This document shows, piece by piece, positions 27,002 through 29,001 of a DNA stretch of 64,000 bases (positions are counted from its first letter, which is position 1; each line of letters opens with the position of its first letter). A program made the translations under genes and the position numbers. Location of the stretch: sequence record PZ386976.1. The stretch is one strand, 5' to 3'. The DNA comes from a phage. The notes below the pieces were generated by a model. The model worked only from the letters and a program-made list of their open reading frames with translations, was not told the origin of the DNA and searched no databases.

Positions 27002-27099
27002 AATGACCTCAAAGTTATATTAAATTTTGTATTACATTGAGTATAAAAATAAGCTATAACACCTGACTTGTCAACAGATTTTATAGCTTATTTGGCAGA

Positions 27100-27521
27100 T
27101 TTTTTATAAGGCTACTGCCATCCTTCCATACCAAACCCTACCGAACAGAACCATGCTTTGCCATACTGGACAACACCTGACCAGACATCACTTAAAAACC
27201 CTTTTCAAAGACTCTTAAGTGATGTAATCGAATTTTAATGTAGCTCCGATTAACTACCCATACCTTGCATTACTTCACCAAACCGTACATTACTTCACCA
27301 AACCATACATTACCAGACCATGCCACACCTGTCCAAACTCAACCTCATTAAAAGACCCTCTTTAAAGACCTTTTAATAAGGTAAGTCTCATTTTTATGTA
27401 GTTGAGACTAACTACCCATACTTTACCTTACCATACCAGACCTCACCCCGCCTTACCGCACCAGACAGCACAATGCAGTACAGTACCTTATTAAAAGACC
27501 CTGTTTAAAGACCTTTTAAAA
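27100..27521. repeat. repeat array A: C-rich/G-poor tracts plus three hairpin families
   Basis: H1 palindrome acatcacttaa-19 nt-ttaagtgatgt at 27185-27225; H2 agtctca...tgagact+aactacccatac at 27381-27421 with variant at 27226-27264; box ttaaaagaccctNtttaaagacc at 27348-27380 and 27489-27524. Confidence 0.6.
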
Positions 27522-27545
27522 AGGAGCCTCCGAAGAGGCTACCTA
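27522..27545 (-). terminator. rho-independent terminator (minus strand) after 27552..27992
   Basis: minus-strand agcctc-ttcg-gaggct hairpin followed by TTTTT. Confidence 0.5.
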
Positions 27546-27551
27546 GTCAAC

Positions 27552-27992
27552 TTAGAAAGGTTTTCTACGTTGCTTGTTAATGTTAGCTTTCATAGCAGCT
27601 AAGTGGTTTTGCTGTTCAATCAGTCGTGAGCGTTCTTGATGGCTAAGTGCCATAGTGTTCACATTCTCAATAGCTTGAGTGGCTTGCTTTAAAGCTCGAC
27701 CAATCTTACCAGACATTTTACGTTTTGCAATAGTTGCTTGATGTTTAGGTTCAACCACACGATAACCAACACCCATTGAAGCAACCAGATAAATCTTCTC
27801 TTCTTTAAGAAGCTTCTCAATAAACTTCTCAAGTCGGTTTAGACGTGTAAGCGCATAAGCCTTCATTTCATCTTCGTACTTAACAATGTCACCTTGATAA
27901 GTTGGCTTCACAATACCTAAGAAGGTATCCATCTCAGAATGTGATACAGTGTCACCGTAACTAAACTTTGCTGCTAATGCTTTTGTATTCAT
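27552..27992 (-). CDS. hypothetical protein (cassette gene 2)
   Basis: 146 aa; basic C-terminus; no motif recognised. Confidence 0.35.
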   Translation of the reverse strand: MNTKALAAKFSYGDTVSHSEMDTFLGIVKPTYQGDIVKYEDEMKAYALTRLNRLEKFIEKLLKEEKIYLVASMGVGYRVVEPKHQATIAKRKMSGKIGRALKQATQAIENVNTMALSHQERSRLIEQQNHLAAMKANINKQRRKPF

Positions 27993-27994
27993 AA

Positions 27995-28597
27995 TTAAAC
28001 GTTACCTTCTGAAATAACTTCTACAGAAAAACGACCAAAGCGTGGACGCCAATCACCTACACCACAAAGGTTACCAGCATTTTCCAGAACCATCAAAAGC
28101 TCTTCTTTGGTGATTTGCTCTTCATCGAACATCAAACCAAACTCTACAGACCAGTCACGGAAGATTGGACGGTAGCTCATAACTCGTGCTGTACCAATCT
28201 TAACAGACTTAGCATAGATAAAGTCTGGATTCTTAGCAAGTTCTTGTGGGTTTGCTGGGCAGTTCTTAATAGTCATTGGGAAGACTACATCTGTCAGCAT
28301 AATGGCTCGGTCAATTACCTTACCAAGTTTGTTGAGTTTTGCACCAGACTTGATACAAGCCTCAATCATCTCACCGTTCATAACAAAACCTAGCTGCTCA
28401 TCATAGTAACAGGAAGTTACTAGTTGGCTTTCTGCTAAGAGCGCATAGTCTTCGTCAGTCTTTTTACGTTTACTGGACAGAGACTTGTGATATTTTGTCA
28501 GAGGGTTTAATGGGTCTGACAGCGTATCGTTATGGCTCAGGAAAGGACGAGTACCAGTGATTTTGATATTTAACAGTTTCATAGCATTTAGCTCCAC
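27995..28597 (-). CDS. hypothetical protein (cassette gene 1)
   Basis: 200 aa; no motif recognised. Confidence 0.35.
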
Positions 28598-28659
28598 ACT
28601 TTAGTTGATTGTTAAGTTGTTTGTAAAGAACCCTCAACAGAAGACTCTTTAGAAACTTG

Positions 28660-28985
28660 GTAGATTTTTAACGTGGCTACTACCATCCACCCATACCTCA
28701 CATCACCATACCATACCATACCTGACCGGACCTAACCAAACTCCACAGCACCATACATCACATCACACAGCCTTATTAAAAGACCCTGTTTAAAGACCCT
28801 TTAAAAAGGTAAGTCTCATTTTAATGTAGCTGAGACTAACTACCCATACCAAACAGCACCGCACTATGCCTTACCCCACCTCACCGAGCCTCGCCCCACA
28901 TCACTTAAAAACCCTTTTCAAAGACTCTTAAGTGATGTTGGTGAGTACCCGTTGGTTTATGCTGCTCAGTATACTCACCAAATTT
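28660..28985. repeat. repeat array B: same element families as array A in different order
   Basis: box at 28774-28809; H2 at 28809-28850; H1 at 28898-28938 (identical to 27185-27225); extra hairpin ggtgagta...tactcacc at 28939-28980. Confidence 0.6.
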
Positions 28986-29001
28986 TCTATGTCAACAACT
29001 T

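Follow-up and report, generated by a model that had tools for sequence, protein, structure and literature searches.

The window analysed here is a stretch of 64,000 nucleotides (nt) of phage DNA (sequence record PZ386976.1), taken at its full length. Between positions 27002 and 29001 it contains two adjacent minus-strand genes that are flanked by long intergenic regions built from repeated hairpin elements. Our analysis identified this region, with a probability of about 95%, as a type II locus of the Viral Interference Programmable Repeat (VIPR) system, belonging to the SUSP1 clade. The "hairpin arrays" consist of five genes in tandem, each for a small guide RNA (vrRNA), that surround the genes vipr and vap1, two of them upstream and three downstream. 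A preliminary description of this DNA had proposed that the arrays are functional, non-coding and belong with the two-gene cassette, and this is borne out by the five vrRNA genes on its flanks; of the mechanisms that it offered, most are wrong. Read along the minus strand, the genes are:

28806-28898, minus strand: vrRNA-u1, with 11 repeats (28844-28898), the 5′ strand of a pseudoknot (28839-28843), a tail hairpin (28812-28837) and a short 3′ flank.
28652-28770, minus strand: vrRNA-u2, with 16 repeats (28691-28770), a pseudoknot strand (28686-28690) and a TGGTAG/CTACCA tail hairpin (28658-28685).
28583-28651, minus strand: leader of vipr, with a GGAG ribosome-binding site 9 nt before the ATG at 28582.
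27995-28582, minus strand: vipr, encoding a RAMP-family protein of 195 amino acids (phmmer match to PDB 36pp_D).
27552-27992, minus strand: vap1, encoding a VIPR accessory protein of 146 amino acids, directly downstream of vipr.
27378-27485, minus strand: vrRNA-d1, with 14 repeats (27416-27485), a pseudoknot strand (27411-27415) and a tail hairpin (27384-27409).
27226-27342, minus strand: vrRNA-d2, with 17 repeats (27258-27342), a pseudoknot strand (27253-27257) and an AATCG/CGATT tail hairpin (27226-27251).
27087-27185, minus strand: vrRNA-d3, with 12 repeats (27126-27185), a pseudoknot strand (27121-27125) and a TGGCAG/CTGCCA tail hairpin (27093-27120).

The repeat families of the preliminary description are real and confined to the two intergenic regions. 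A 41-nt palindrome, H1, is present in two identical copies (27185-27225 and 28898-28938), a box TTAAAAGACCCTNTTTAAAGACC in three copies (at 27348, 27491 and 28776; 0 in 100 shuffles) with no further copy in the window, and the sequence TAACTACCCATAC likewise in three copies (at 27251, 27409 and 28837). H1 and the box had been listed as distinct families; both are present, but they are two sequence types (B1 and B2) of one 41-nt element, here called element B. A hairpin H2 had been counted three times, which holds for the copies with TAACTACCCATAC, but two further stem variants are found at 27093-27120 and 28658-28685, and adding these gives five copies of a hairpin A and thereby five tandem units. 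The units measure 127-158 nt and read, on the plus strand, hairpin A, C-rich tract and palindromic element B. Hairpin A has one conserved loop and four different stems (TGGCAG/CTGCCA, TGGTAG/CTACCA, AATCGR/YCGATT and AGTCTCA/TGAGACT). By this parse each unit would give rise to one vrRNA of roughly 90-120 nt. The guides proper, meaning repeats plus tail, are 93-119 nt long in the window and about 100 nt for the 12-repeat guide of phage SUSP1; since the units are longer than this, element B lies outside the mature guide.

The C-rich tracts follow a strict pentamer code, for which statistics were compiled from 65 distinct tracts at 30 loci (the window and 29 related loci). On the plus strand the tracts contain 38-49% C and 5-12% G over 60-90 nt, compared with 19% C and 21% G in the whole window, and CCATACC occurs eight times inside the two arrays against three times in the remaining window, in agreement with the C-rich, G-poor and ccatacc-rich tracts reported before. 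The distance from hairpin A to element B varies only in 5-nt steps, and 63 of the 65 tracts have a length exactly divisible by 5. The in-phase plus-strand pentamer is CCNNR (C 90%, C 82%, two free positions, A 81%), with a purine at the fifth position in 98-100% of pentamers, which becomes the Y of a minus-strand GGY. Read on the minus strand the tracts are thus (YNNGG)n, where GG and Y are conserved and NN is free, and 59 distinct NN codes were counted in 71 guides. Within the window YNNGG tracts are found only at the five units, with 11, 16, 14, 17 and 12 repeats. In vrRNA-d2 a 20-nt segment of four pentamers (CATTACTTCACCAAACCRTA) is tandemly duplicated 2.25 times at 27268-27312 (the 20-nt repeat pair spanning 27268-27307), and this looks like slippage damage to the guide.

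The tails are equally constrained. A gapless alignment of 28 distinct tails over 43 columns showed the pseudoknot paired in 99.1% of cells, with compensatory changes in three of its four pairs (GUAG/CUAC, AAGG/CCUU, GUGG/CCAC) and in six of the eight pairs of the tail stem, and sliding the register by 1-3 columns made tail pairing collapse to 26-44%. This covariation rests on four paralogous tail types and therefore on few independent events. Folding and covariance analysis had been suggested as a check on H1 and H2; for the H2 tail it gave these compensatory pairs and for H1, as part of element B, the pairing described further below.

Identification of the locus came from the protein. Scans of both cassette genes against Pfam, PHROGs and NCBIfam gave only matches of 'unknown function', while a phmmer search with Vipr against the PDB sequences retrieved one entry, 36pp 'SUSP1 Vipr protein', with E = 6e-128 and 191 of 195 residues identical. 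The residues H17, K33, R39, E71, M72, K82, G87, K88, R138, C173, D177, W178 and R179 are all present, so that the protein of the window keeps every functional residue named in the cryo-electron microscopy (cryo-EM) preprint, including the D177-W178-R179 of the G-loop and R138 of the thumb (10.64898/2026.04.26.720920,.720927). Judged by this identity, Vipr is a minimal RAMP homologue of about 20 kDa with RRM core, G-loop and thumb. Its gene had been drawn to a GTG start at 28597, but the ATG at 28582 is most likely the start, giving 195 amino acids, because GGAG lies 9 nt upstream and the solved SUSP1 protein begins with MKLLNIK. The distance from the adjacent tail hairpin (type Ab) to the vipr start is a constant 75 nt in all cassette-bearing loci. 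The vap1 gene shows 99.3% identity to its phiSUSP1 counterpart (28034-28471), and vap1 is reported to enhance protection (10.64898/2026.04.26.720920,.720927). More distant homologues of Vipr (32-43% identity over about 95% of the protein) were seen in unrelated phages with Pseudomonas, actinobacterial and marine vibrio hosts, namely Pseudomonas phage Medea1, Mycobacterium phage LittleE, Gordonia phage Trine and Listonella phage phiHSIC; no homologue of vap1 was detectable in these four.

VIPR was reported in two 2026 preprints, cited here from the available part of their text, as RNA-guided DNA silencing (bioRxiv 10.64898/2026.04.26.720920; 10.64898/2026.04.26.720927). Its components are Vipr, described as a minimal RAMP homologue, an accessory Vap protein and the vrRNAs, which consist of 9-16 YNNGG repeats and an invariable 3′ tail of about 40 nt that forms a pseudoknot in the SUSP1 clade (10.64898/2026.04.26.720920,.720927). 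Each repeat is taken by one Vipr protomer that sequesters GGY and presents NN, and in the resulting filament the NN bases pair with double-stranded DNA while each third target base is skipped; in the SUSP1 complex an R-loop triplex forms and transcription is blocked (10.64898/2026.04.26.720920,.720927). Experiments in SUSP1 and P. fulva showed that vrRNAs of about 100 nt co-purify with Vipr and that the complex represses transcription, and small-RNA sequencing located one SUSP1 vrRNA 5′ and three 3′ of the genes (10.64898/2026.04.26.720920,.720927). The type of locus is therefore already known as of these preprints and its SUSP1 clade is experimentally characterised, which makes our finding a rediscovery, albeit one in which the 5-nt period was worked out from the sequence ahead of the link to the preprints. 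Our unit parser, applied to phiSUSP1, returned one upstream and three downstream units with 12 repeats in the upstream guide; this agrees with the published small-RNA sequencing and cryo-EM sample (10.64898/2026.04.26.720920,.720927). With its 17 repeats vrRNA-d2 exceeds the range of 9-16, owing to the internal 20-nt duplication.

The closest known relative of the locus is that of SUSP1 (PDB 36pp). Vipr is 98% and vap1 99% identical, the genome position between the DNA ligase gene and a Felix01p159 homologue is the same, YNNGG repeats are followed by a hairpin-pseudoknot tail, guides stand on both sides of the genes, and the decoded targets lie in the same kind of E. coli satellite. It differs in having two upstream guides where SUSP1 has one. 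Compared with the other 29 parsed loci, four of the five NN codes of the window are absent except in one or two relatives each. From the near-identical protein and the same RNA architecture we infer that the Vipr-vrRNA complex of this phage would work by the same mechanism as that of SUSP1.

Several other candidates were tried and rejected. A TRAP-like ring protein on (GGUNN)n, that is a multimeric single-strand binder with one pentamer per subunit, was right in spirit, the actual protein being the Vipr filament. T7-type primase sites (GGTC) are not enriched, with G at the relevant position in 16%, which is chance level, and CsrA or Hfq sponges were discarded as there are no GGA or ARN motifs. 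Decoy sites for EcoP1 (AGACC) and ToxI-like antitoxin mimicry had been considered until the PDB match to Vipr. No sequence in the window matched Rfam 15 at gathering score, and within 26900-29100 only noise appeared at E <= 10; ARAGORN found no tRNA or tmRNA in the window, consistent with the earlier statement that the elements are not tRNA-like. Literature searches with loose terms returned unrelated papers only, and the repeats are unmentioned in the Felix O1 genome paper and the UAB_Phi87 paper.

Which strand is read as RNA is settled by element B, which separates the units. Its five copies in the window are:

28898-28938, minus strand: hairpin B of type B1 (H1), a stem of about 19 bp located 5′ of vrRNA-u1, folding at -20.6 kcal/mol (z -6.4) in the minus sense against -13.3 in the plus sense.
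28770-28810, minus strand: hairpin B of type B2, containing the box, assigned by sequence type, fold and pairing.
27485-27525, minus strand: hairpin B of type B2, assigned by sequence type, fold and pairing.
27342-27382, minus strand: hairpin B of type B2, -18.9 kcal/mol in the minus sense against -8.9 in the plus sense.
27185-27225, minus strand: hairpin B of type B1 (second copy of H1), -17.7 kcal/mol (z -5.1).

As minus-sense RNA element B is a hairpin of about 19 bp with a 3-nt loop, and the box is accordingly the apical half of an RNA stem. Over 45 distinct copies, 93% of cells pair in the minus sense (22% as G.U) against 72% in the plus sense, and three stem positions are essentially always G.U in the minus sense, which would be A.C mismatches in the plus sense. 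The minus-sense folds of the window copies reach -20.6, -17.7, -18.9, -11.6 and -11.4 kcal/mol, the plus-sense folds of four copies -13.3, -8.9, -8.1 and -6.1 kcal/mol. The GGY motif, the promoter P1 (see below), the tail pseudoknot and the G.U-dependent hairpin agree that the RNAs are read on the minus strand, which is the gene strand, with element B being decisive. The inter-guide hairpins are probably double-stranded RNA punctuation, that is processing sites from which single vrRNAs would be freed.

These data also bear on two other explanations. With C at 38-49% and G at 5-12% over 60-90 nt the plus strand is rut-like, and the tracts might be taken for Rho-utilisation sites or for antisense small RNAs directed against the gene strand, the latter being an idea of the preliminary description. 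Small RNAs they are, but from the minus strand: no plus-strand promoter was found in the arrays, hairpin B and tail pair far better in the minus sense and the minus-strand motif fits the published GGY code, which leaves the plus-strand reading next to no credibility. Similarly, the elements might be operators or iterons bound by the nearby HTH regulator, given that an HTH_3 protein gene (26112-26441) lies about 600 bp downstream of the region and that both promoters fall inside inverted repeats. Yet what is conserved is RNA structure with invariant G.U at three stem positions and not double-stranded DNA sites, the box occurs nowhere else in the window, and the related phage Mordin has the HTH gene but zero units. 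Of the promoter/operator arrays proposed earlier only the two outermost inverted repeats carry promoters, and we hold an operator function of the arrays to be extremely improbable.

Targets of the guides were decoded from the NN bases. The baseplate gene of the phage (13486-14283, plus strand), which adjoins the tape-measure gene, has counterparts in 474 of 5,426 complete E. coli genomes, with 90-94% nucleotide identity across some 70% of the gene. These 'phage baseplate protein' genes lie in integrated elements of about 11 kb with genes for a recombinase, tape measure, baseplate, HNH and hypothetical proteins; the insertion site is either between yciI and tonB or inside a DUF72 gene that neighbours yecD. 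One such element is carried by E. coli strain 20 (NZ_CP064847.1, about 2.643-2.654 Mb). The tape-measure and baseplate genes of these satellites are closely similar to the phage's own, and 18 of 20 targets of SUSP1-clade guides were reported to lie in an E. coli satellite phage (10.64898/2026.04.26.720920,.720927). We scanned five sampled satellite elements after collapsing each GGY to one skipped base; the target threshold of the preprints is at least 80% of NN bases matching (10.64898/2026.04.26.720920,.720927). The best match of each of the five guides falls within a satellite:

vrRNA-d3: 21 of 24 NN bases, in a hypothetical satellite gene present in three of the five satellites; 0 of 100 NN-order shuffles reach the score.
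vrRNA-u1: 19 of 22 NN bases, in the satellite recombinase gene; 0 of 100 shuffles.
vrRNA-d1: 21 of 28 NN bases, in an adenine methyltransferase gene of one satellite variant; 0 of 100 shuffles.
vrRNA-u2: 24 of 32 NN bases, and 17 of 18 in the 5′ nine repeats, in the satellite recombinase gene; 1 of 100 shuffles.
vrRNA-d2: 16 of 16 NN bases over the 5′ eight repeats, in an HTH-domain gene of one satellite variant; 0 of 100 shuffles.

The match of vrRNA-d2 ends after its first eight repeats because of the 20-nt duplication. Only a skip of 1 nt rises above the null, skips of 0, 2 or 3 nt giving null-level scores, and in four of the five matches the skipped base is a codon wobble position. Within the window no self-target reaches 80%, the best being at most 73%. 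The five sampled satellites contain no YNNGG tracts and no homologue of Vipr or Vap1. Based on these matches, the guides of this phage are apparently aimed at the integrated satellite of about 11 kb.

Expression of the locus can be outlined from the following signals:

28968-28995, minus strand: promoter P1, TTGACA-N16-TATACT, 11 of 12 consensus positions, directly after the ligase stop codon.
27525-27540, minus strand: intrinsic terminator-like hairpin after vap1, AGCCTCTTCGGAGGCT then CCUUUUU, -15.4 kcal/mol.
27046-27093, minus strand: inverted repeat, an 18-bp hairpin followed by a U-run, -17.8 kcal/mol (z -4.6), a terminator-like end of the guide array.
27074 to 27046, minus strand: promoter P2, TTGACA-N17-TATTTT, within this inverted repeat, for the next gene (27001-26618).

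P1 overlaps the inverted repeat at 28939-28980; the hairpin reported there exists and overlaps a sigma-70-like promoter. P1 is conserved next to hairpin B1 in all loci parsed, and both the P1 and the P2 site are annotated as promoters in the GenBank record of phage AYO145A. Host RNA polymerase starting at P1 would transcribe the minus strand through two guide genes and then vipr and vap1, with the three further guide genes placed beyond the vap1 terminator. P1 and P2, both sigma-70-like, are each embedded in an inverted repeat, and at P2 this one element may serve as the end of the guide array and the start of the next operon. In Mordin, a phage without guide units, another inverted repeat surrounds the corresponding P1 -10 box. 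The possibility that hairpin B contains internal sigma-70 promoters was considered and rejected: the best candidate, TTAAAA-N18-TTTAAT, is without the conserved A at -10 position 2 and was not called by the scan.

The setting of the region invites one further explanation, a transcription-dependent origin at which the G-rich minus-strand tracts, lying downstream of a strong promoter, would prime replication through R-loops or G-quadruplexes. The extreme GC skew of the non-template strand, the tandem promoters P1 and P2 and the location among replication genes would suit such an origin: the region belongs to a minus-strand block from 23.5 to 35 kb with genes for thymidylate synthase, DHFR, the HTH regulator, DNA ligase and DNA polymerase, the ATP-dependent DNA ligase (29002-30141, minus strand; assigned by Pfam and PHROG scans) being its immediate neighbour. 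It does not, however, account for the pyrimidine that is conserved behind GG, the pseudoknot of the tail or the homology of Vipr, unit number ranges from zero (Mordin) to at least five in close relatives, which is odd for an essential origin, and the turning points of the cumulative GC skew are near 23.5 and 35 kb and not at the region. The iteron-bearing origin named in the preliminary description found no support, and we give replication priming scarcely any chance. A packaging or terminal function was excluded, as the genome ends (608-bp terminal repeats) lie elsewhere.

Not all observations sit easily with the VIPR assignment, and the following weigh against it or its details. The whole mechanism for this phage is carried over from SUSP1. 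In each guide of the window 27-38% of the repeats carry UG or AG instead of GG. Only two of the five guides reach the 80% match of NN bases in the five satellites sampled, and when an idealised vrRNA-u2 target was compared by BLAST with the 5,426 E. coli genomes, no recombinase variant with a better match turned up. Two guides match in their 5′ half, while the cryo-EM work suggests that the R-loop starts at the 3′ pseudoknot end (10.64898/2026.04.26.720920,.720927). The promoter scan recognised no promoter of its own for the downstream array, which lies behind a terminator. Finally, the role given to hairpin B is our own interpretation and does not appear in the available part of the preprint text (10.64898/2026.04.26.720920,.720927). 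As regards the UG and AG repeats, these often cluster at the guide 5′ end; in vrRNA-u2 such repeats at the 5′ end nonetheless agree with the target and may thus remain readable.

The locus is widespread among relatives. A megablast search with 26900-29100 matched 257 phage records at 88-96% identity, almost all of them Felixounavirus or other Ounavirinae of E. coli, Salmonella, Shigella and Citrobacter, and the source phage is a Felix O1-like myovirus. A scan of IMG/VR with the box pattern found only 10 loci, all on Felix O1-like contigs of about 88 kb. The genes vipr (at least 90% identity) and vap1 each occur in 118 of these 257 records, and the breakdown by organism is the same for the two. 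The remaining records, about 139 and including Felix O1, have neither gene yet retain one to three intact vrRNA units between P1 and P2. Felix O1 (NC_005282.1, 57631-57914) has exactly one guide unit and no cassette between the two promoters, humlepung has two units and Mordin none, so that the lineage spans guide copy numbers of zero to at least five. The 30 loci parsed have, for the most part, different guide codes. The guide-only loci keep the pentamer pattern, with CC at 0.78 compared with 0.79 in vipr-bearing loci and the purine at 1.00.

Guide-only loci can also carry guides with recognisable targets. In the complete genome of Salmonella phage SP116 (KP010413.1) tblastn at E <= 1, for which the window served as positive control, detected neither Vipr nor Vap1; both guides nevertheless match the E. 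coli satellite, with 25 of 28 and 20 of 24 NN bases, scores reached by 0 of 100 shuffles. Guides from Felix O1, LinBro, humlepung (Aa unit) and ECOH1 matched the E. coli satellites at null level only. One NN code is joined to tail type Aa in two vipr-less phages, SP116 and BPSELC-1, and to tail type Ab in the upstream guide of SapYZU01, which adjoins vipr. A shared code with a swapped tail points to deletion or exchange by recombination between two related tail hairpins, which lie on either side of the downstream array and the cassette. As the tail fusion of SP116 is what deletion between repeated tails would give, it favours a recent loss of vipr, with which a use of the guides in trans may be compatible.

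The cassette had been suspected to vary between related phages, and it does: the loci without it look like deletions between the repeated guide tails. An alternative reading gives the arrays recombination as their main task, as in the promoter-stem-loop (PeSL) cassettes of T4-type phages, so that the two genes can be exchanged as a cassette. In its favour, the cassette lies precisely where two units meet, fewer than half of the related records (118 of 257) have it, and the SapYZU01 upstream-guide tract recurs on the other tail type in SP116. Recombination nevertheless leaves the YNNGG period with its free NN, the pseudoknot covariation, the G.U-dependent hairpin and the satellite targets without explanation, and we regard it as a very unlikely primary function. 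Exchangeability is better taken as a by-product of the repeated guide genes, the tails of which would let the cassette be lost or gained by homologous recombination. That the guide-only loci are maintained and not just decaying, and that the 41-nt inter-guide hairpin is a processing signal of type II arrays (e.g. an RNase III site), is a combined proposal that we advance tentatively and consider unlikely to hold in full.

Comparison with known systems places the locus near, but outside, Class 1 CRISPR-Cas. Shared with the Cas7-family RAMP filaments on crRNA are a RAMP-fold protein that polymerises along a guide RNA, a thumb that flips out bases periodically and a variable guide capped by a conserved structured handle (10.64898/2026.04.26.720920,.720927). 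VIPR differs in having no repeat-spacer array, cas1/cas2 or adaptation module, in being encoded by a lytic phage, in its non-contiguous guide, of which two of five RNA bases pair and one of three target bases is skipped, and in silencing transcription without cutting. The repeat search in the window found no CRISPR repeat family, the units having structured, non-identical boundaries, and no Cas domain came up when the neighbouring genes were scanned with Pfam and PHROG. The arrays had been called not CRISPR-like and irregularly spaced; this description misleads, as the locus encodes an RNA-guided RAMP homologue and its tracts obey a strict 5-nt period. The Vipr RAMP system has been argued to predate CRISPR and proposed as an ancestor of CRISPR effectors (10.64898/2026.04.26.720920,.720927). 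The trp leader RNA of Bacillus, in which 11 (G/U)AG triplets with 2-3 nt spacers are wrapped on the TRAP ring protein, shares the 5-nt period of conserved triplet plus 2-nt spacer and the binding of one protein subunit per repeat; TRAP spacers carry no information and the ring is a closed 11-mer, whereas in VIPR the spacers are the information and the filament is open and helical. ToxI and pseudo-ToxI, known from type III toxin-antitoxin mimicry by phages, are likewise tandem non-coding RNA units of phages that vary in copy number between close relatives, but they are antitoxin pseudoknots of 34-45 nt cut by ToxN, with no pentamer code, DNA targeting or homologous protein.

VIPR is a newly reported (2026) form of RNA-guided DNA recognition that uses a non-contiguous pentamer code and a single protein of about 20 kDa. 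Its signature can be recognised from raw sequence by the 5-nt period, the G.U-dependent hairpins, the covarying pseudoknot and a small adjacent gene pair. Within one phage lineage the locus is widespread and variable and repeatedly lacks its effector genes. Two points go beyond the available preprint text (10.64898/2026.04.26.720920,.720927), the loci with guides only and the hairpin between guides; they bear on how guides are processed and on the sharing or theft of guides between co-infecting phages and satellites. If orphan guides do act in trans with the Vipr of a co-infecting relative, or if they are decoys for the Vipr of a rival, either would constitute a new layer of inter-phage conflict.

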